Of a stretch of DNA of 64,000 nt, positions 35,634-45,419 are shown piece after piece. Every line of letters begins with the position of its first letter. Within the stretch, counting starts at the first letter, position 1. The translations under genes and the position numbers were made by a program. Under the pieces are notes generated by a model. It ran no database searches and had not been told where the DNA came from. It saw only the letters and a list, made by a program, of their open reading frames with translations. Origin of the DNA: Gemmatimonas sp. (GTDB lineage: Bacteria; Gemmatimonadota; Gemmatimonadetes; Gemmatimonadales; Gemmatimonadaceae); assembly GCA_965279375.1 (NCBI GenBank), contig OZ257156.1, positions 2,912,001-2,976,000 on the forward strand. The letters are read 5' to 3'.

Positions 35634-37847
35634 ATGCCGGCTGCTCCGCACGATCTAGACGCGTTCCGCACGCAATACCGCGCATTCATTAGCGACCTGA
35701 TGCGTGCGGTCGGGGGCGACGGCTCGTCGCCCCCGCAGTGGCTGCGCCTTCTCGAGGCGCAGCCATTTGAGTTTCCCAATGGGATTCCCGTCAATGCGGA
35801 CACCATCGCACTGCGAGGCCGTCTGCTTGCGCTGGTAGTGATGGCGGCTGATGACGATGCGTACGCGCGCGCTGCGTCGGCGGAGGTACGCCGCATGCTC
35901 TCCGTCGATGCAGATGAGGATGCGCAGTCGGAGGAAATCACCCGGGGCCCCACGCGCGGCTCTACGCGTGGGCCGACACGAGGCCCGAAGCGGAGTCGAC
36001 CGACGGCGATGGCAGAGCCACCGGACCGGCTCGACTTCGGCGCAGACGATGGCGGCGGCGGCGTGTCGAGCAAGCCTCCCACGGGTGCGTCTGCTGGCTC
36101 GGCGCCCGACGATGGACTGCTCAGCGCGGACCCGCTGGTGACGCGCAGCGTGGACTCCGACGAGGCGGCGCCTGCTGCAGCGGCGGCGCCAGCGACGCCG
36201 GCAGCACCACCCGTCGCTGCGCCGCCGCGCTACATGAATGCGGGGATCAAGGGGCAGGACCGCGACGATCCGCTGGTGGTGGGCGAGATGTACGTGCTGC
36301 AGTTCGGCGTCGATATGAAAAAGGGTGGCGAGACGGGCACCGACTTCGCCGCACGCATCCCTGACGTGAGTGTGCTGCTTCGCCCGGAGGAGGACTCGGG
36401 GGAACTCACCATTCAACTCGATGGCGACGCGTTCGACATTCCGACGCGAACGCAGGTGCTGCAAGTGCCGCGCACCGGGCCATCAGCTCGCAAGGTGAGC
36501 TTCGCGATCACGCCGACGCGTGAAGGGCGCGCGACACTGACGGCAACCGTGCACAAGGCGGGCAACTTTCTGTTCGAAATGGAGCTGTCGTACTCCGTTG
36601 GCGTGGTCGACGCGCGGCCGGCGACGACGGAGGTGCATGGACGCGCCCTCAGTGCGGCGAGCGCGATCATGCCGCGCGAGTTGGGACTTCGTATCAAGCC
36701 GGTGGAGAGCGGCTACGAATGCACCGTGTGGGGGGAGGTCAACAATCAGGTCACGTTGCCCATCACGACGGTCGAGCTCAAGGAGATGGTCGCGCGCGCG
36801 CGTGACGCGATGATGGATGTGGTGCTGCATGCGAACAGCGCGAACATCAAGATCTTCCAGCAGTCGGTGGACATCGACGATGCTTCGCGTGAGTACGCAT
36901 TGAAGACGCTCGCCTTCGCCGGTGCGGAGCTGTTTCAGCGCTTGTTCTACGGGCCTTCGGCTGGACCAGAGGTGAATCTCGTGGGCGACTGGCTGCGCGC
37001 ACGCGCCTCAAAGCCCGGACGCGTGCTCAAACTGCAGATCGTCGCGGAGCGATTCCCGATTCCGTGGGGACTGCTCTACATGGGCGAGACGGCGGACGGT
37101 GCCGCGCTCGACTGGCAGCACTTTCTTGGGATGCGGCACATCATCGAGCAGATCCCGCGTCAGGCGAACATGCTCGTCGATGACTTCGTGATTCCGAGCG
37201 ACGCCCCGTCGCTGGCGGTGAGCGTCACCGTGAATACCGGCATCGACGTGCAGATGAAGCGCGAGCTGGTCGCCCCTCAGGTGAAGTACTGGACGGATCG
37301 CGGTGCGTCACCCAAGAACGACGTGCAGCTGCAACAGCGGACCACCAAAGCCGACTTGATCAAGGCGTTGCGTTCGCAAAGCGCCGAGCAAGTGATGTAC
37401 CTGTACTGTCATGCCATCACGAGTGGCGTGAACGATCCGGGGGGCATCATGGCATCGTGTCTGGTGCTCTCCGGCGACGAACGCGTGACGCTGGGTGAAC
37501 TCAACCGCGAAGCGCCGATGCGCCAGGCGCTCCCGGGAAATCCGCTGGTGTTTCTCAATGCCTGCGAGTCTGCAGAGCTTACGCCGGAATTCTACGACGG
37601 CTTTGTGCCGTACTTCATGGCGAAGGGCGCGCGCGGCGTCGTCGGTACGGAGTGCAAGACACCGGCGCTGTTCGCCACGGCGTGGGCACAGGAGTTCTTC
37701 CCGCGCTTTCTCGCCGGTCAGCCGCTTGGCGAACTGTTTCGCGATTTGCGCAGTGAGTTTTGTCTCAAGCACGGCAATCCGCTCGGTCTTCTCTATGCCG
37801 TGTACTGTGATGGCGACACGCAGATTCAACCTGGCCTTCCTTCCTGA
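35634..37847 (+). CDS. CHAT (caspase-like) protease with disordered N-terminal region and Ig-like/TCAD7-like middle domain
   Basis: IPWGLLY, YLYCHA (His593), VFLNACES (Cys644), GARGVVGTEC, NPLGLLY. Confidence 0.85.
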   Translation: MPAAPHDLDAFRTQYRAFISDLMRAVGGDGSSPPQWLRLLEAQPFEFPNGIPVNADTIALRGRLLALVVMAADDDAYARAASAEVRRMLSVDADEDAQSEEITRGPTRGSTRGPTRGPKRSRPTAMAEPPDRLDFGADDGGGGVSSKPPTGASAGSAPDDGLLSADPLVTRSVDSDEAAPAAAAAPATPAAPPVAAPPRYMNAGIKGQDRDDPLVVGEMYVLQFGVDMKKGGETGTDFAARIPDVSVLLRPEEDSGELTIQLDGDAFDIPTRTQVLQVPRTGPSARKVSFAITPTREGRATLTATVHKAGNFLFEMELSYSVGVVDARPATTEVHGRALSAASAIMPRELGLRIKPVESGYECTVWGEVNNQVTLPITTVELKEMVARARDAMMDVVLHANSANIKIFQQSVDIDDASREYALKTLAFAGAELFQRLFYGPSAGPEVNLVGDWLRARASKPGRVLKLQIVAERFPIPWGLLYMGETADGAALDWQHFLGMRHIIEQIPRQANMLVDDFVIPSDAPSLAVSVTVNTGIDVQMKRELVAPQVKYWTDRGASPKNDVQLQQRTTKADLIKALRSQSAEQVMYLYCHAITSGVNDPGGIMASCLVLSGDERVTLGELNREAPMRQALPGNPLVFLNACESAELTPEFYDGFVPYFMAKGARGVVGTECKTPALFATAWAQEFFPRFLAGQPLGELFRDLRSEFCLKHGNPLGLLYAVYCDGDTQIQPGLPS
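35940..35987 (+). repeat. Four in-frame TRG[P/S] repeats
   Basis: ACCCGGGGCCCC ACGCGCGGCTCT ACGCGTGGGCCG ACACGAGGCCCG. Confidence 0.85.
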
Positions 37848-37857
37848 GGAATTCTGA

Positions 37858-39237
37858 ATGCCTGTACGCACTATTCCGGGCACGAATGTGCAGTACCATC
37901 TGATTAATTTCGACGCCGACGGCGTCGAGCGGGCGGAGAGCGATGGCACCATGCTGAGCGCCGAAGTTCGGGCACGCATTGCGTCGTCCACCGATCCAAT
38001 CAGCGACGTGTTCTTCTGCAGCCATGGGTGGCAGGGTGACATACCCGCCGCCATCGCGCAGTACGACAAATGGGTGGCCGCGATGGCTGCCTCGCCAGAC
38101 TTCGCGGTCGCGAAGGCCAAGCGCCCCGGCTTTTCACCGATCGTTGTCGGGGTGCACTGGCCCAGCCTGCCGTATGGCGATGAGAACCTGCCCGAAGCCG
38201 GCGTGCTCGGCGTGGATGATGGCACGCAGATCGAGGCACAGATCGATGCGTTCGCCGCGACGATTTCCAACACGAAAGCGGCACGTGATGCAATTCGCGT
38301 GATTCTGACTGCCGCGCAGCAGGATGACGGCGAGCGCGAGACGTTGCCCGAGCACGTGCGCAATGCGTACGAGCTGCTCGCGTTGGAGGCTGCACTGCCG
38401 GACGGTGGCAGCAATCCGGGTGGACCACCGGGAGAGGAGTTGGGCGCGTGGGATGCGGACGCGCTCTACGCTGATGCCCGAGAGATTGCGAAGACAGATG
38501 GCGCTTCGGATGGCGAAGGAGCGCCGGGTTTGCTGAGCGGAGGATTCTTCGGCAAGCTCAAGGGGCTGGTCGTCGCGCCGCTGCAGCAGATGTCGTTCTG
38601 GAAGATGAAGGATCGTGCGCGATCCATCGGTGAAGGCGGCGTGCACTCATTGCTCATCTCGCTGCAGGAAGCCTCCGAGCCCAGCACGCAGTTCCATCTC
38701 ATGGGGCACAGCTTTGGCTGCATCGTGATGTCGGCGACCGTCGCAGGCGCTGCGAACGGCGCGCCGCTCAAGCGGCCGGTCGATTCGCTTTTTCTGGTAC
38801 AGGGCGCGGTATCGCTGTGGTCGTACTCGCCCAACATTCCCGTCGAGCCCGGAAAGGTGGGCTACTTCAATCGCATTCTTGCGCAGAAGCTGGTGCGCGG
38901 GCCCATCGTGACGACGCAGTCGTCGCACGACACAGCCGTGGGCAAGCTCTATCCCGCAGCGGTACGCGTGAAGTCGCAGTTCCTGCTCGGCGACGAATAC
39001 CCGAAGTACGGCGGCATCGGGACGTTCGGCATTCAAGGTGTCGGCGACATCGGACAGAACCTCGAGATGTCTGACGCCACGCACCAGTATGCGTTCAAGC
39101 CGGGGCGTGTCTACAATCTCGAGTCGAGTGGGATCATCAAGGTGAGCAGCGGCCTGGCTTCCGGTGCGCACAGCGACATCGCCCATCCGGAAGTGGCGCA
39201 CGCCTTCTGGCAGGCTGTTCTCCACTCGGCCGCGTGA
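37858..39237 (+). CDS. Alpha/beta-hydrolase (lipase/esterase-like) with a large acidic insertion
   Basis: SHGW (oxyanion), VHWPS, HLMGHSFG (Ser285), SSHDTA (Asp358), GAHSDI (His438); no signal peptide; SD GAGGA. Confidence 0.85.
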   Translation: MPVRTIPGTNVQYHLINFDADGVERAESDGTMLSAEVRARIASSTDPISDVFFCSHGWQGDIPAAIAQYDKWVAAMAASPDFAVAKAKRPGFSPIVVGVHWPSLPYGDENLPEAGVLGVDDGTQIEAQIDAFAATISNTKAARDAIRVILTAAQQDDGERETLPEHVRNAYELLALEAALPDGGSNPGGPPGEELGAWDADALYADAREIAKTDGASDGEGAPGLLSGGFFGKLKGLVVAPLQQMSFWKMKDRARSIGEGGVHSLLISLQEASEPSTQFHLMGHSFGCIVMSATVAGAANGAPLKRPVDSLFLVQGAVSLWSYSPNIPVEPGKVGYFNRILAQKLVRGPIVTTQSSHDTAVGKLYPAAVRVKSQFLLGDEYPKYGGIGTFGIQGVGDIGQNLEMSDATHQYAFKPGRVYNLESSGIIKVSSGLASGAHSDIAHPEVAHAFWQAVLHSAA

Positions 39238-39238
39238 C

Positions 39239-42100
39239 ATGAGCCACACCGGTACGCTTCCGGCGCCGCTTCGCGTCACGGTGACGAACGCGAACCTCAA
39301 GTTCATTCGCCATCCGATGATGGTTGGGCACTATCGCTCGATGGTGCTTACCGGCACCGAGTTGGCGATGGACATGCTGCTCGGCGGTACGATGACCACG
39401 TCGCTGCGCATGGGGCTGTATCCGGATCAACCTGGTTCGCAGCAGATCTTCCTGAATACGCATGCCAATCACGACAATCCCATGCAACCGCCGCGACCAG
39501 ACGCGGTGATTGTCGTGGGATTGGGTGAGGAAGGAAAGCTGCGCGCGCCTGCGCTGGCCAGCACGGTTCGCCAAGGCGTAATGGCGTGGGCGCAGCGACT
39601 GCAGGGCAGTTCGGCCAAGAAGGTACCGTCGTTCGAACTGGCCGCATCGCTGATCGGCAGTAGCGGCTCCGGAAACAACGCTGGACAGGCGGCGCGATTG
39701 GTCGCTCAGGGCGTACGTGACGCCAACATACGCCTGCTCGAAGCGGGATGGCCCATCGTGCAGCACCTGCATCTCGTCGAGTTGTTTCTCGATCGTGCGA
39801 CGGAAGCGTGGCGCTCGCTGCAGATACTCGCCACGGCGTCGCCGGGCGAGTTCGTGATCTCGCCGTTCTTGCAGACGGGGCTGGGTGGCTTGCAGCGTCC
39901 ACTCAACCCGAGCTATCGCGGGTCGGAGTTCGACCTGATCACTGCGGTCACGCAGCAGGACAGTCACGGCGACTCGCTGATTGCATATACGGTCGATACG
40001 CGACGTGCTCGCACCGAAGTGCGCGCGCAGACAACGCAGATCAAACTGCTGCGCGAGCTCACCACGAGCGCCGCCGACAACGAGAGCACGGACAAGCAAA
40101 TCGGCCGCTCGCTCTTTCGCCTGCTCGTTCCGTTGGAGATGCAGCCGTTTCTCGGTGGCTCCGATGCGATGGTCATCGAATTGGACAGCGGCACGGCGGG
40201 AATTCCGTGGGAACTGCTCGACGCGTCTACCGGAACAGAACAGGGGCGCGCCGCGATGCCGTGGGCGCTGCGCACGAAATTGCTTCGCAAGCTTCGCACG
40301 GTGGACTTCCGCATGCAGGTGCAGGATTCCACAGCCGACGCGCACGTGTTGATCATCGGCGAGCCGCGGTGCGATGATCCCGCGTTTCCGCGACTTCCCG
40401 CCGCGCGCGAGGAAGCGCGCGACATCGCGCGACTGTTCAGCAGTCAGGGAAACTTGCCGTCGGCATCGGTCAAGGAGCTGATCTGCGGCCCCGGCCCGCG
40501 TGATGTCGGCCCCGATGCGCGCACGGTCATCAACGCACTGCTCGAGCGAGACTGGCGCATCATTCACATCGCTGGCCATGGTGAGCCGCCGGACGCCGCG
40601 ACGAGTGCGTCCGCTGCCGATGGCGTGCTACGTGCCGCATCGGATCCGCGCGGGGTCGTGCTTTCCAACGGCACCTACCTTGGCCCGCGTGAGATCGCGA
40701 CGATGTCCGTCGTGCCGGAGCTGGTGTTCGTGAATTGCTGCTACACCGCGGTCAGCAATGCGGAGGACATTCTCGACGCCAGCCCCGCCGACCGCCGCGA
40801 TCGCGCGCGCTTTGCCGCGGGCGTCGCAGAAGAGCTGATCCGCATTGGGGTGCGTTGTGTGATCGCCTCTGGCTGGGCCGTGGAAGACGAGCCCGCGATG
40901 GAGTTCGCGCGCACGTTTTACCGCGAGTTGCTACAGGGCAATCGATTCATCGATGCAGTCGCTGAAGCGCGGACGGCATCGTGGAGGAAGGGCGGCAACA
41001 CGTGGGCCGCATATCAGTGCTACGGCGATCCTGACTGGCGTTTTGTGCCGGCATCGGTGGAGGTGCAGCAGTCGTCCCGAAATCCGGAAGACAAGTACGC
41101 CGGTGTGGCATCGTGGCGCGTGCTGTTGCTGGCGCTCGAGGCGCTCGCTGTCGAGAGTCGCTACAAGGGATACGATCACGACAAGGGGCGCGCGAGTCTG
41201 CTGTTGCTGGAGCAACGCTTCGCCGCCGTGTGGGGAAACATCGGTGCGGTCGCGGAGGCGTTTGGGTTGGCCTGGTCGCAGCTTGGCGACCGCAACAAGG
41301 CGATCGAGTGGTACACACGTTCGGTTGCCACCAATGACAGCAGCGCTTCAATCAAGTCGGTTCAGGAGCTGGGTAACCTGCGCGCACGCGTCGCGTTGGA
41401 GAACGCCGATGCCGTCAAGGCGATGTGCGACTCCACCGGGGACACGACAGCGCTCACGACCGCCATCAACGCGGCCCGTGAGGAGATTCGGACCGCGCTG
41501 GCGATGCTGGAGCAGGTGGCGGGACTGCAGCCGACGATCGATCGAGAGAGTCGATGCGGCTCCGCGTGGAAGCGGTTGTCCATGTTGGAGGCGATGGCTG
41601 GTGATGCCAAGGCCGAGCAGGAGGCGATCGCGCGGATGAAGGAGCGCTATGACAACGCCGAAGAGTTGGCGCGTCGGACGCAGCATCCTGAGTTGTTCTA
41701 TCCGGCATTGAACCGCATGGCGGCGGAGCTGATCGTGGCGGGCCAAGCCGAGTCGTGGCGCGGGTTCGATCCCACTCATGTAGCAGAGATTCGCGAAAGT
41801 CTGCTGGCCAAGACGCGCGACGATCCTGATTTCTGGAGCGTGTCCGGTGTGACGCAGCTACGCATGTACGAAGCGATGGCGCATCGCGCGATGGCCGCCA
41901 ACCTCGATGCGATTCTGGATGAGTATGCCTCGCTCAACGAGCGGGTCAGCGCGACGTGGCTATGGGCGTCGGTGTACGATCAGGCGCGTTGGGTGGTGCC
42001 CAAGTACATGGAACGCGTGGATGAGGTCGAAGACGAAGCGGCGCGGCGCCTACTCGAACGGCTGGCGACGTACGCGGGAGTGCGCTCAGTCACAATTTGA
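39239..42100 (+). CDS. CHAT (caspase-like) protease with N-terminal alpha/beta domain and C-terminal TPR-like helical region
   Basis: IPWELL, LPAAREEA, IHIAGHG (His447), VFVNCC (Cys501), GWAVED, TWAAYQCYGDP; helical repeats ending in DFWS. Confidence 0.87.
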   Translation: MSHTGTLPAPLRVTVTNANLKFIRHPMMVGHYRSMVLTGTELAMDMLLGGTMTTSLRMGLYPDQPGSQQIFLNTHANHDNPMQPPRPDAVIVVGLGEEGKLRAPALASTVRQGVMAWAQRLQGSSAKKVPSFELAASLIGSSGSGNNAGQAARLVAQGVRDANIRLLEAGWPIVQHLHLVELFLDRATEAWRSLQILATASPGEFVISPFLQTGLGGLQRPLNPSYRGSEFDLITAVTQQDSHGDSLIAYTVDTRRARTEVRAQTTQIKLLRELTTSAADNESTDKQIGRSLFRLLVPLEMQPFLGGSDAMVIELDSGTAGIPWELLDASTGTEQGRAAMPWALRTKLLRKLRTVDFRMQVQDSTADAHVLIIGEPRCDDPAFPRLPAAREEARDIARLFSSQGNLPSASVKELICGPGPRDVGPDARTVINALLERDWRIIHIAGHGEPPDAATSASAADGVLRAASDPRGVVLSNGTYLGPREIATMSVVPELVFVNCCYTAVSNAEDILDASPADRRDRARFAAGVAEELIRIGVRCVIASGWAVEDEPAMEFARTFYRELLQGNRFIDAVAEARTASWRKGGNTWAAYQCYGDPDWRFVPASVEVQQSSRNPEDKYAGVASWRVLLLALEALAVESRYKGYDHDKGRASLLLLEQRFAAVWGNIGAVAEAFGLAWSQLGDRNKAIEWYTRSVATNDSSASIKSVQELGNLRARVALENADAVKAMCDSTGDTTALTTAINAAREEIRTALAMLEQVAGLQPTIDRESRCGSAWKRLSMLEAMAGDAKAEQEAIARMKERYDNAEELARRTQHPELFYPALNRMAAELIVAGQAESWRGFDPTHVAEIRESLLAKTRDDPDFWSVSGVTQLRMYEAMAHRAMAANLDAILDEYASLNERVSATWLWASVYDQARWVVPKYMERVDEVEDEAARRLLERLATYAGVRSVTI

Positions 42101-42245
42101 GACGGTTCGGTCCGCCTCAGTATCTGTTGCGGATCACAGGTTTGGCGCGAGTATACAGGGACGGGCGCCGTGCTCATCACAGGCAGACGGCCCCGACCCA
42201 TTGGCGCCAGCGTTTGACGCTGGCCAGTCCGCCACTTGCGACCGC

Positions 42246-45200
42246 ATGCGACTCGATACGCGCACGATCCTGTTCGTGATCTCGCTGGTGAGTTTCACGA
42301 ATGCGATGGCGATGTTCATTGGCTGGCGCACGTATCTGCGCCAGCGACAAATGGCGTGGTGGCTGGCGTCGAGCTTCAGTTTGACGCTGGGCATCTGCTT
42401 GCTGACGCTGCGCGGCTTGGTACCCGACGTTGTGCCGGTGGTTTTCGGCAATTTTGCCGTTCTGATCAGCATGGGGACGCTGCTGATCGGCTGCGAGCTG
42501 TCCGTAGATGCACGGCCGTCGTGGCGCGGGGCCGGTTCGCTGCTCGGCGTGCTCGCTGCGGTGCATCTCTACTTCTTCTTTGGTTTCGATTCCTTCCTGG
42601 CGCGCACGGTGGTGATGTCTATTGCCTCGGCCGCCTTTCCCCTCGCGTCGGCGCGCGTGCTCTTCCGTGCGCAACGGCAGCCGTCTACGTCCACGCGATT
42701 CATTGCGGCGGGGCTGTTGTTCTTGATTGGCGGGGCGCAGGCACTTCGCGGCATCCTGGCGCTGCGCGGCGCGACGCCGACGGACCTGGTGGGTGACAAC
42801 GTCGCGGTTACGGTCAATCTGACGTTGGCACTCATGCTGTGGCTGCTGTTGTCGTTCGTGTCGATGGTGATGACGGGTGAGCGACTGCAGGAAGAGACGC
42901 GCGTGGCGCGGGCCGCGCTCGATGCGTCCACGCAGGCGGGTCTGCAGGCATTGCGCCGCAGCGAGGAGCGCTTCTCGCTCGCCGTGGAAGGATCGAATGC
43001 GGGCATCTGGGATTGGGACGTGGCGTCGAACACGTTCTTCCTGTCGGCGCTCGGCAAGTCGCTGCTTGGCTACGCCGACGACGAAGCCGAAGGGAGCTAC
43101 GAACGGTGGTTTCAGTTGCTGCACCCAGATGATTCCCCGCGTGCGGTGCAGACGATTCGTCAGTACCTGCGCAGTGGGCAATCGGAGCTGGTGCTGGAGC
43201 ATCGGTTGCGTCACCGTGACGGAACCTATCGTTGGATGCTCGGTCGCGGTGCGGCGCGACGCGATGCGGCGCTGCGTGTGTATCGCATCGCCGGCTCGAT
43301 CGAGGACATTACGGAACGTCGAACGACGGAGGATGCGCAGGAATTTCTTGCGCGCCACGCACATCTCGGGCTCGGCGAAGACTTCTTCGACTCCCTCTGT
43401 CGCTATCTCCTGCAGGCGCTCAGCGCCGATGCTGTCTTCTTCGATCGTCTCTCGGCAGATGGATCGAGCGCGGTGGTCGAAGCGTCGTGTACGATTGGAG
43501 TCATCGGCGTGCCTGCGGTGCGCGAGTTGGAGGGGAGTGCAGTTGGCGAGTGCGTGAAGGAGGGCAACTGGTCGATGCTCCGCGGCGTTCGGGAGCGCTT
43601 TCCCACCGATGCGAGGCTGCGCGCCGTTGGCGCCGAGGCGTGTGTGGGAACGACATTGCGCATGACCAATGGTCAGCCGATCGGTGTGATCACGGTCGTG
43701 ACTCGAACTCCGCTCGCGGATTCCCGGACCGCGGAGTTGCTGCTGTCGCTCTTTGCCGTGCCGGCGTCCGGTGAACTCATTCGCAAGCAGGCGGACGAGG
43801 CATTGCGGCGTCGCGAGGAGTATTCGCGGCACCTGCTGACGAGCCTCCCTGCCGGCGTGGTCGTGCATTCGCCAGACACAGCGGTGCTCGACTGTAACGC
43901 GATGGCGAGTGCGATGATGGGGCTGACGCTCGACCAGATGCGTGGCCGCACGGCCGTCGATCCATCGTGGAGTTTTGTGCGCGAGGATCGCACGACGATG
44001 ACGCTGGATGAGTATCCGGTTCGGCGTGTCGCTGCGACCGGAGCGCCCGTGAGTGGGTTGGTGGTGGGCATGCAGGTGCCTGGACGCGGTGATGTCACGT
44101 GGGCGGTGTGCAACGCCTATCCGATCGACGACGATGACGGTGCACTCTCGCAGATCGTGGTGACGTTCGTGGACGTCACGGAGCGCATCCGATCGGAGGA
44201 GGCACGCGCGCAGCTGGAGTCGCAGTTGCGACAGTCGCAGAAGATGGAGGCGGTTGGGCAGCTGGCCGGTGGAATCGCGCACGATTTCAATAACCTGCTC
44301 ACCGTGATCACCGGCATTGCGGATGTCGCCGCGCGCAGTTTGTCGCCAGAGGATCCGTTTCGTCGCGATCTCACCGACATCCAACGCGCAGGGCAGCGCG
44401 CCGCGGTGCTCACTCGTCAGCTACTCGCGTTCGGCCGCAAGCAGACCATTGCACCGGAGATTTTGAACCTTGGCGTGTTGATCGACGACTTGCAGCCACT
44501 GCTGACGCGCGTCATTCGCGAGAATATCCGCCTTGAGCTGCGGGCCTGCCGCGGCCCGTGTGAGGTGCTCGCCGATCCCGGACAGATCGAGCAGGTGCTG
44601 CTCAACCTTGCGTTGAACGCGCGGGATGCGATGCCGCACGGCGGCACGCTCACCTTCGAGCTGAGCGAGACTACGCTCGACCCGGCGTTCGTGCGCTCGC
44701 ATCCGGGCGTGCGTCCGGGGCCGCATGTGCGAATGAATGTGCGCGACACCGGCGTCGGGATGGACGAGTCCACGCGTGCGCGCGTTTTCGAACCGTTCTA
44801 TACCACCAAGGCGCCGGGGCAGGGGACTGGGCTTGGCCTGGCGACGGTGTATGGGATCGTCTCGCAGTCGCGTGGAGCCATCGAGGTGGTCAGCGCGCCG
44901 GGACAAGGCACGACGTTCTCCGTCTACCTGCCGTTGGTGCGCGGTGCGTCACACGCGGGCGAAGGATCCGCGCTCCGGGTACGCACGCCGAGGGATACGC
45001 CGTCCGTACCGATGTACGAGGTATCCGAGGAAGCATTCTCGGGGACGGGGAGCATTCTCGTGGTGGAAGACGAGGGAGCGATCCGTCGCCTCGCGCAGCG
45101 CATTCTCCAGAGTGCGGGGTACACGGTTCTGACGGCGTGCGACGGTGTGGATGCCTTGCGCGTACTCGAAGAGCGTGGCTCGGCGGTGGACCTGTTGCTG

Positions 45201-45419
45201 ACCGACGTGATCATGCCCAACATGGGCGGACCGGAGCTCGCCAAACGGCTGTCAGAGTTGCACCCGTCCACGAAGGTGCTGTACGCTTCGGGTTACGCGG
45301 GCGACGCGGAGTTGCGCCTCAACGCGATTGGCGAGTCCAGCAATTTTCTGGGCAAGCCGTATCAAGTAGTGGAGCTGACACGGAAAGTGCGAGAGATCAT
45401 GGCCACAGGCAAAGCGTGA
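42246..45419 (+). CDS. Membrane hybrid sensor histidine kinase (TM sensor-PAS-GAF-PAS-HisKA-HATPase-REC)
   Basis: About 7 TM helices; GIWDWD/HPDD PAS; AHDFNNLL, NARDAM, DTGVG, FEPFYTTK, GTGLGL; REC LLTDVIMP..KP. Confidence 0.93.
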   Translation: MRLDTRTILFVISLVSFTNAMAMFIGWRTYLRQRQMAWWLASSFSLTLGICLLTLRGLVPDVVPVVFGNFAVLISMGTLLIGCELSVDARPSWRGAGSLLGVLAAVHLYFFFGFDSFLARTVVMSIASAAFPLASARVLFRAQRQPSTSTRFIAAGLLFLIGGAQALRGILALRGATPTDLVGDNVAVTVNLTLALMLWLLLSFVSMVMTGERLQEETRVARAALDASTQAGLQALRRSEERFSLAVEGSNAGIWDWDVASNTFFLSALGKSLLGYADDEAEGSYERWFQLLHPDDSPRAVQTIRQYLRSGQSELVLEHRLRHRDGTYRWMLGRGAARRDAALRVYRIAGSIEDITERRTTEDAQEFLARHAHLGLGEDFFDSLCRYLLQALSADAVFFDRLSADGSSAVVEASCTIGVIGVPAVRELEGSAVGECVKEGNWSMLRGVRERFPTDARLRAVGAEACVGTTLRMTNGQPIGVITVVTRTPLADSRTAELLLSLFAVPASGELIRKQADEALRRREEYSRHLLTSLPAGVVVHSPDTAVLDCNAMASAMMGLTLDQMRGRTAVDPSWSFVREDRTTMTLDEYPVRRVAATGAPVSGLVVGMQVPGRGDVTWAVCNAYPIDDDDGALSQIVVTFVDVTERIRSEEARAQLESQLRQSQKMEAVGQLAGGIAHDFNNLLTVITGIADVAARSLSPEDPFRRDLTDIQRAGQRAAVLTRQLLAFGRKQTIAPEILNLGVLIDDLQPLLTRVIRENIRLELRACRGPCEVLADPGQIEQVLLNLALNARDAMPHGGTLTFELSETTLDPAFVRSHPGVRPGPHVRMNVRDTGVGMDESTRARVFEPFYTTKAPGQGTGLGLATVYGIVSQSRGAIEVVSAPGQGTTFSVYLPLVRGASHAGEGSALRVRTPRDTPSVPMYEVSEEAFSGTGSILVVEDEGAIRRLAQRILQSAGYTVLTACDGVDALRVLEERGSAVDLLLTDVIMPNMGGPELAKRLSELHPSTKVLYASGYAGDAELRLNAIGESSNFLGKPYQVVELTRKVREIMATGKA

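Follow-up and report, generated by a model that had tools for sequence, protein, structure and literature searches.

LcHydrolase is an alpha/beta hydrolase that LcCaspase cuts after Arg73 and Arg117, and its N- and C-terminal fragments alone kill, as given in the accessible part of the report (Evans et al. 2025, 10.1101/2025.11.14.688446). The same text describes MBL effectors whose clades are paired with different protease classes, namely trypsin-like, caspase-like and S8 (10.1101/2025.11.14.688446). In Runella, a Roc-COR-CHAT protease frees a pore-forming gasdermin by one cut, at V246-L247|G248 in an exposed loop, and Leu-Gly is required, according to the accessible text of two sources (10.1101/2021.06.07.447441; PMC13475620). 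In the MoxR-vWA (VMAP) ternary systems an alpha/beta hydrolase is stated to lie next to the caspase-superfamily domain in every case (Kaur et al. 2020, PMC7159879); the part of that article available to us gives neither cleavage sites nor a mechanism.

We analyzed a 64,000-nucleotide stretch of Gemmatimonas sp. DNA (the window), in which CHAT1, a hydrolase and CHAT2 form a three-gene unit on the plus strand with gaps of 10 and 1 bases (Table 1). The unit resembles the LcHydrolase module in that a lipase-like alpha/beta hydrolase with a Ser-Asp-His triad adjoins a caspase-fold cysteine protease with an intact dyad, here CHAT1 of the CHAT family, and in that two conserved sites enclose a middle fragment placed directly behind the Y/W-G-D strand and ahead of the lid helix; these positions were compared by eye with the printed sequence only. 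The two differ in size, LcHydrolase having 296 aa with a 44-residue middle piece and the window's hydrolase 459 aa with a 109-residue four-helix insert, and in the cut residue, since LcHydrolase is cut after Arg (Arg-Gly) whereas no Arg-Gly was found at the predicted Leu-(Gly/Ser) sites of the window's protein. The latter also has a third predicted site, between the catalytic Asp and His, and its family is paired with a CHAT, C25-like or S8 protease, often fused, and often with a second, sensor-type CHAT. Neither a cut between Asp and His nor a four-helix inhibitory insert, both predicted here, is described for the LcHydrolase module in the accessible report.

As in Runella, the predicted cut is by a CHAT-family protease after Leu in an exposed loop, and the Runella V-L-G is the same as that of site 1. 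The first-pass annotation of this DNA had described the Runella protease as cutting after Leu, before a small residue; the Leu holds, but the accessible text calls for Gly and not for any small residue, whereas Ser, Asp and Ala also follow the Leu in the hydrolase family. No gasdermin effector is present in the operon, whose three genes encode a CHAT, a hydrolase and a CHAT-TPR protein. The MBL nucleases are likewise one effector family with clades divided by protease class and with several cuts, but their fold and activity are different and all fragments are needed; the accessible part of Evans et al. (2025) does not report a partner-matched change of the cut residue for them. The likeness to the VMAP systems is one of pairing: in locus L007 a MoxR-like AAA gene lies downstream of this hydrolase and a C25-like gene. 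The window's operon has no MoxR or vWA gene. The accessible portions of Kaur 2021 (PMC8195603), Dyrka 2020 (10.1101/2020.01.06.895854) and 10.64898/2026.10.19.760177 contain nothing specific. A hydrolase cut after Leu or Phe, a third site or a C25 partner was not described in the literature searched, as far as the texts were accessible; the supplementary figures of Evans et al., which lie outside that literature, may show CHAT-linked neighbourhoods.

Table 1. Features of the three-gene unit in the window (nucleotide positions; residue numbers are those of the protein concerned)
Feature	Position	Strand	Remark
CHAT1, upstream CHAT protease, 737 aa	35634..37847	+	likely cognate protease
GLLS in CHAT1 linker (Leu163), candidate self- or trans-cleavage site	36114..36125	+	motif match
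Alpha/beta hydrolase, 459 aa, predicted zymogen	37858..39237	+	middle gene
Site 1, G-V-L117|G118 (GVLG, residues 115-118)	38200..38211	+	predicted cut; loop 106-120 pLDDT<50
Acidic four-helix insert, residues 118-226, 11.2 kDa, net -15, predicted released fragment	38209..38535	+	
Site 2, G-L-L226|S227 (GLLS, residues 224-227)	38527..38538	+	predicted cut; loop 219-228 pLDDT<50
Helix 237-248, candidate lid	38566..38601	+	suggested by low-depth couplings to insert, HGW and WPS loops and site-3 loop
Nucleophile elbow GHSFG with Ser285	38704..38718	+	invariant columns in 108 sequences
Asp358, catalytic triad	38929-38931	+	invariant in 108 sequences
Site 3, F-L-L377|G378 (FLLG)	38980..38991	+	predicted cut; loop 368-379 pLDDT<50
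His438, catalytic triad	39169-39171	+	invariant in 108 sequences
CHAT2, downstream CHAT protease, 953 aa	39239..42100	+	candidate sensor/initiator

The hydrolase and its three loop motifs

The AlphaFold model of the hydrolase (pLDDT 85.6, pTM 0.89, from 108 sequences) has an alpha/beta-hydrolase fold. Several fold matches share the top score (Z 12-13), among them a DDHD domain, RavL, Tle3, Tle4, lipases and esterases, which gives a hint, no more, that the substrates could be lipids. A Foldseek comparison with the PDB gave no match at E<=0.001, and a PDB sequence search was empty, with no solved relative by sequence. Look-alike clusters in the Atlas carry the name 'serine/threonine kinase', which is automatic and which the fold does not support. 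We found 2349 homologues among 8000 candidates scored, and the family comprises 2679 representatives at 50% clustering; no characterised member of this large family was found, and neither the hydrolase nor CHAT1 is covered by a PADLOC model.

The first-pass annotation had pointed to similar motifs at the two edges of an acidic insertion and to the same motif in the upstream CHAT, and every motif, including GLLS in that CHAT, lay where it had been placed. The single sequence holds two G-x-L-[GS] matches against 0.71 expected, which is within chance, and the case for the motifs therefore comes from the homologues. Counted without alignment in the best 120 of 2349 homologues, [VLIFM]-L-[GSA] occurred at the N edge of the insert in 100 proteins (shuffle mean 10.5, maximum 20) and at the C edge in 102 (shuffle mean 18.8, maximum 28), while two control windows inside the insert gave 21/120 and 3/120. 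Conservation of L-G/S at both edges, which the earlier annotation had named as a check, was thus found. In the alignment of these homologues Leu117 was present in all 109 rows ungapped there, Leu226 in 109 of 120 and Leu377 in 120 of 120, making site 3 the most conserved of the three. The residue after the site-2 Leu is Gly in 106 of 120 homologues and Ser in the window's protein.

The model contains four stretches with pLDDT<50 (106-120, 219-228, 368-379 and 431-435), the first three of which hold Leu117, Leu226 and Leu377; the motifs are thus predicted to lie in flexible, exposed loops. The first-pass observation was thus partly confirmed, being real and stronger than its reader could see: both edge sites were borne out, but FLLG, which had been mentioned in passing, was missed as a third site. 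Taken together, these comparisons suggest that the three motifs are very probably protease sites.

Both edge motifs were absent together from 11 of 120 homologues. Insert and triad are kept without sites 1 and 2 in P0077, P0086, P0095, P0099, P0102 and P0108, and likewise in P0110, P0113, P0114, P0118 and P0119. Among the loci, L066 (3822-5270), L068 and L069 encode hydrolases in which sites 1 and 2 are missing but insert, triad and Leu377 remain, the last being followed there by Val; those of L066 and L069 adjoin a CHAT1 with intact His/Cys. The L066 hydrolase is followed by a gene for a 1877-aa protein with a Macro domain.

Partner proteases and the residue at the three sites

Loci were drawn from genomes (7), from metagenomes (the best 80 of 495) and from 401 phylum genomes (15 besides the window), fusion proteins were taken from the best 150 of 2679 representatives, and dereplication at 70% left 84 hydrolases. 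The partner, beside or fused, was of the CHAT1 type in 33, C25-like in 23 and an S8 subtilase in 6; the remaining 22 hydrolases were unassigned, most of them lying on short contigs or having a partner more than 400 bases away. The C25-like class was assigned from weak to passing Pfam C25 matches, and in two plasmids the gene is annotated as C25.

When the partner was CHAT1, the Leu motif was found at site 1 in 31 of 32 parsed rows (6.4 in shuffles) and at site 2 in 30 of 32 (7.6 in shuffles), and Leu occupied the fixed column of site 3 in 31 of 31. When the partner was C25-like, site 1 carried a Phe/Tyr motif in 20 of 23 rows (Leu motif in 2/23), site 2 in 22 of 22 (Leu motif in 0/22) and site 3 a Phe or Tyr in 17 of 19 (Phe 15, Tyr 2, Leu 1, Gln 1); the patterns used at sites 1 and 2 are post hoc, and the Phe pattern is loose, with shuffle means of 9.6/23 at site 1 and 12.1/22 at site 2. 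Two plasmid loci with an annotated C25 neighbour, fetched afterwards, had Phe at all three sites. One locus (L006) has Tyr, Tyr and Leu at sites 1-3 and, next to them, a C25-like gene that is split in two. The S8-paired relatives have A-A-[SG]-[LI]-G motifs and loops ending in Leu/Ile-Gly, in which the scissile bond cannot be placed; because these loops also end in Leu/Ile-Gly, Leu is not specific to CHAT. A distant S8-subtilase-paired clade (L031-L043, L129) has its own motif at the three loops and occurs commonly on Rhizobium plasmids as well as in the genus of the window.

In a tree built without the loop columns, from which three short or redundant rows were left out, the C25 group was a single clade (SH-aLRT 95) nested within the CHAT1 group. 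The single clade indicates that the Leu-to-Phe switch was one event, with three sites changing together, so that on these sequences the partner-matched switch is one replacement event and not many. A single event, together with the hydrophobic-Gly ends in S8-paired relatives, would also suit a reading in which the Leu and Phe residues are never cut and act as hydrophobic plugs or docking motifs for a pocket on the hydrolase or its partner. We consider this highly improbable: the same motif occurs in unrelated, disordered protease-side linkers (below), the next residue is almost always small, as at a scissile bond, each of the three partner families consists of proteases (the His/Cys dyad was checked in CHAT1), and both precedents, LcHydrolase and Runella, are cut according to their accessible reports.

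CHAT1 consists of an N-terminal region with a low-complexity linker, a beta-sandwich (residues 199-322) and a caspase/separase-fold domain (Pfam CHAT, E 1.3e-11). Its model (pLDDT 87.5) matches the Csx29 and separase folds, and the dyad His593/Cys644 is invariant in 28 aligned relatives. The residue two before the Cys, a position that may line the specificity pocket, is Asn in CHAT1 (20/20) and Phe in the C25-like proteases (9/9). The accessible report gives Asp at this position in the Arg-cutting LcCaspase (10.1101/2025.11.14.688446).

In 20 of 87 loci the hydrolase and CHAT1 form one protein, and 11 of 148 new representatives are fusions with a C25-like protease. All 14 parsed linkers of hydrolase-CHAT1 fusions contained the Leu motif, 11 of them in the strict G-x-L form (0.3 in shuffles); the other 8 of the 22 fusion rows in the dereplicated set were left unparsed. 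In separate CHAT1 proteins the strict motif was found in 3 of 9 linkers and the loose one in 7 of 9, which equals the shuffle maximum of 7. The first-pass suggestion that the same specificity could process the upstream CHAT is thus supported by the fusion linkers, whereas the separate linkers have kept the motif only in part. The N-terminal regions of the C25-like proteases were not enriched in their own motif (1/10). The CHAT1 linker of the window has a short RG-x-T unit three times at 35940-35990, and comparable RG units and stretches of poly-Gln are present in the linkers of relatives.

That every parsed fusion linker (14 of 14) bears the Leu motif suggests the upstream CHAT as the cutter, and from these sequences CHAT1 probably cuts the hydrolase. 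The cutter might instead be CHAT2 or another sensor-linked CHAT, CHAT1 and the C25-like protease then sharing the motif as substrates themselves or as effectors acting in parallel. CHAT2 retains both dyad residues and carries sensor-like domains, the motifs of the CHAT1 linkers are compatible with a cut in trans, and in two loci (L091, L125) a Phe-type hydrolase has a sensor CHAT alone in view, with no C25 gene in the fetched stretch; L125 also contains a transposase and has no Phe at site 2. Nevertheless, the sensor CHATs differ between loci, the residue at the sites goes with the constant partner (CHAT1 or C25), the fusions involve CHAT1 or C25, and L127 has Phe sites and a C25 protease with no CHAT annotated in the fetched stretch. 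Of the 22 CHAT1-class loci whose downstream flank reaches at least about 1.5 kb, only 5 are adjoined by CHAT2, and in L094 a CHAT2-like gene follows a hydrolase with Phe sites, from which CHAT2 is not tied to Leu sites. We therefore regard a cut by CHAT2 as improbable and retain CHAT1 as the candidate protease. In genome G000, five more CHAT-domain genes lie elsewhere (L130, L131, L133, L134, L135), and any of them could act on the operon in trans.

The acidic insert and the proposed switch

The insert had been described in the first-pass annotation as acidic and Gly-rich. The first was correct, D+E amounting to 20% (net -15) against 8% (net -2) in the rest of the hydrolase; the second failed, Gly being 11.9% against 10.6%. 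The model places four confident helices in the insert (123-135, 140-154, 165-177 and 200-217). A Gly-rich, unstructured coil or loose spacer is rejected on the Gly content and these modelled helices.

Covariation was shallow (346 sequences, effective 255, 455 columns), and ranks beyond about 50 are noise. The pair Y171-P241, which joins the insert to helix 237-248, ranked fourth. The top 50 also contained Q59-Q244, P105-S246 and Y106-Q243, joining this helix to the HGW and WPS loops, and F247-V369, joining it to the site-3 loop. L117-L226 and L226-L377 ranked 273 and 400, within noise, and carry no evidential weight. From the couplings and the model loops, we infer that the insert probably clamps the lid helix and that the three sites would ring the active-site mouth. 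The annotation had regarded the insert as an autoinhibitory lid removed by double cleavage; the edge motifs support the excision, but the insert is a folded helical subdomain that appears packed on the lid helix.

After the predicted excision the central fragment would be basic (net +8). Release of an amphipathic helix by cut 2 was considered and found weak (mean z 1.2 with CHAT1, 0.25 with C25 and 1.9 with S8 partners), the amphipathicity after site 2 being low in the window's own protein; the net charge after site 2 is about +4 in all three partner groups. A 322-aa natural homologue (P0158) lacks the whole insert and has an intact triad and a non-standard site 3; it is a singleton. Among short proteins, a search for naturally split hydrolase genes gave 311 matches, and the 11 with ends inspected were fragments, none tied to a split gene.

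Because the three motifs turn from Leu to Phe with a different protease, the hydrolase is likely inactive until its neighbouring protease cuts it, and by analogy with the described systems cutting would probably activate it. The conservation and good folding of the insert are not what a disposable spacer would show, which counts against the reading we prefer (below). The nick at Leu377 could instead be the decisive switch, the cuts at 117 and 226 just loosening a helical cap that remains in place and may be required. Leu377 is invariant, and the clade lacking sites 1 and 2 keeps it beside an intact CHAT1; the insert shows residue conservation and confidently modelled helices, and all three fragments of the MBL nucleases are required according to the accessible report. 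We find this switch rather doubtful, given that sites 1 and 2 change with the partner as tightly as site 3, that the Val after site 3 in that clade is a poor match to the small residue elsewhere, that P0158 exists without an insert, and that the middle fragment of LcHydrolase is dispensable in the accessible account. Departure of the insert after cutting is moderately probable. The first-pass interpretation is thus partly supported, by conserved and exposed motifs, by the precedent for double cleavage and by the motif in CHAT-side linkers.

Candidate sensor genes, possible defence context and the meaning of the proposed switch

CHAT2 consists of a weakly Peptidase_M17_N-like N-terminus, a CHAT domain with intact His447/Cys501 and a TPR-S-like C-terminus. 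Its Pfam CHAT match is strong (E 3.3e-28), while TPR-S (5.3e-05) and M17_N (0.054) are both below cut-off; an Atlas lead adds to the evidence on this protein. The N-terminal domain (39239-39960) is a possible ligand-binding sensor. In other loci, CHATs fused to nSTAND1-WD40, SIR2, TPR, HEAT or CHASE2 stand in place of CHAT2, and the pattern read from these sequences is a variable sensor CHAT with a constant protease and hydrolase. In the SAVED-CHAT to PCaspase cascade of type III CRISPR, a sensor CHAT acts upstream of a second caspase-fold protease. The window's operon differs from it, having no Pfam match to SAVED (a PADLOC match is limited to CHAT2 residues 428-635, its CHAT part) and a second protease that is CHAT/separase-like with a predicted dedicated hydrolase substrate.

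Related loci have immune-type neighbours, namely nSTAND1-WD40, SIR2, TPR, MoxR-like AAA and NucA/trypsin fusions. In the window's genus, CHAT1 occurs in 4 of 60 genomes, many of them incomplete, and the flanking tricorn gene in 54 of 60; no clean empty site was found, the 5 genus genomes without operon or kinase genes behind tricorn having an altogether different neighbourhood. Because of the relatives' neighbours and this patchy spread, we favour, with moderate confidence, a role in defence or cell death.

A PAS hybrid histidine kinase gene lies directly after CHAT2 (41907-45419 in the window), and such a kinase is kept with the operon in L001, L002 (on the same contig as L145), L046 and L146. 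PAS/GAF kinases and a CHAT gene precede the fusions in L076 and L106. The proteolytic switch might be real yet act in signalling or in development, such as lipid remodelling controlled by a two-component system, and not in phage defence, as the PAS kinase in the window and the four related loci checked, the PAS/GAF kinases and CHASE2-CHAT near other copies, the S8-type copies among housekeeping genes and the lack of a PADLOC model would allow. The STAND-WD40, SIR2, MoxR-like and NucA contexts, the patchy distribution and the lethality of the LcHydrolase fragments, as given in the accessible report, speak against such a use, which we consider unlikely.

Polyproteins (P0131, P0143, P0146, P0147, P0153, P0157, P0208, P0226, P0247) combine the hydrolase with C25-like and trypsin-like proteases, a NucA-type nuclease or phospholipase D, and are likely self-processing multi-effector chains. 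Two loci (L042:6058-11931 and L044:2331-8021) have a further, distant hydrolase type followed by a gene of unknown function, a CHAT and a weakly C25-like gene; the L044 CHAT has a weak Tad2-like match.

The reading we prefer, with a probability of about 0.55, is that the hydrolase is a death effector, probably lipase-like, which stays latent until residues 118-226 are excised and the chain is nicked at 377. A trigger would be sensed by CHAT2, or in other loci by the STAND-WD40, SIR2, TPR, HEAT or CHASE2 CHATs, and CHAT1, switched on by CHAT2 or another cue, would cut the hydrolase after Leu117, Leu226 and Leu377. The 11.2-kDa acidic insert would then leave the basic central fragment and free the lid helix, while fragments 1-117, 227-377 and 378-459 would stay together and hold the Ser-Asp-His triad. 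The active hydrolase would probably degrade lipids and kill the cell, the outcome being abortive infection. CHAT1 would probably also be cut at Leu163 in its own linker, a cut that in fused relatives would part the two halves.

More broadly, and tentatively, at less than even odds, these loci may represent a widespread family of lipase-like death effectors that are locked at three loops surrounding the mouth of the active site and re-keyed as a unit when the protease is replaced, with Leu for CHAT, Phe for C25/gingipain-like proteases and a third key for subtilases. The hydrolase would be the end point of a two-tier cascade, in which a variable sensor CHAT acts on a constant executioner protease; the latter would also cleave within its own linker or release itself from a fusion. 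Exact cut sites, and the specificity of two protease families that are so far uncharacterised, are predicted here from sequence alone, and cognate versus swapped protease-hydrolase pairs would therefore be a clean test. If true, this would define the specificity of such C25-like proteases for the first time and reveal a caspase chain from initiator to executioner that ends in a membrane-destroying enzyme, and would extend proteolytically gated immunity to a large hydrolase family in which we found no characterised member.
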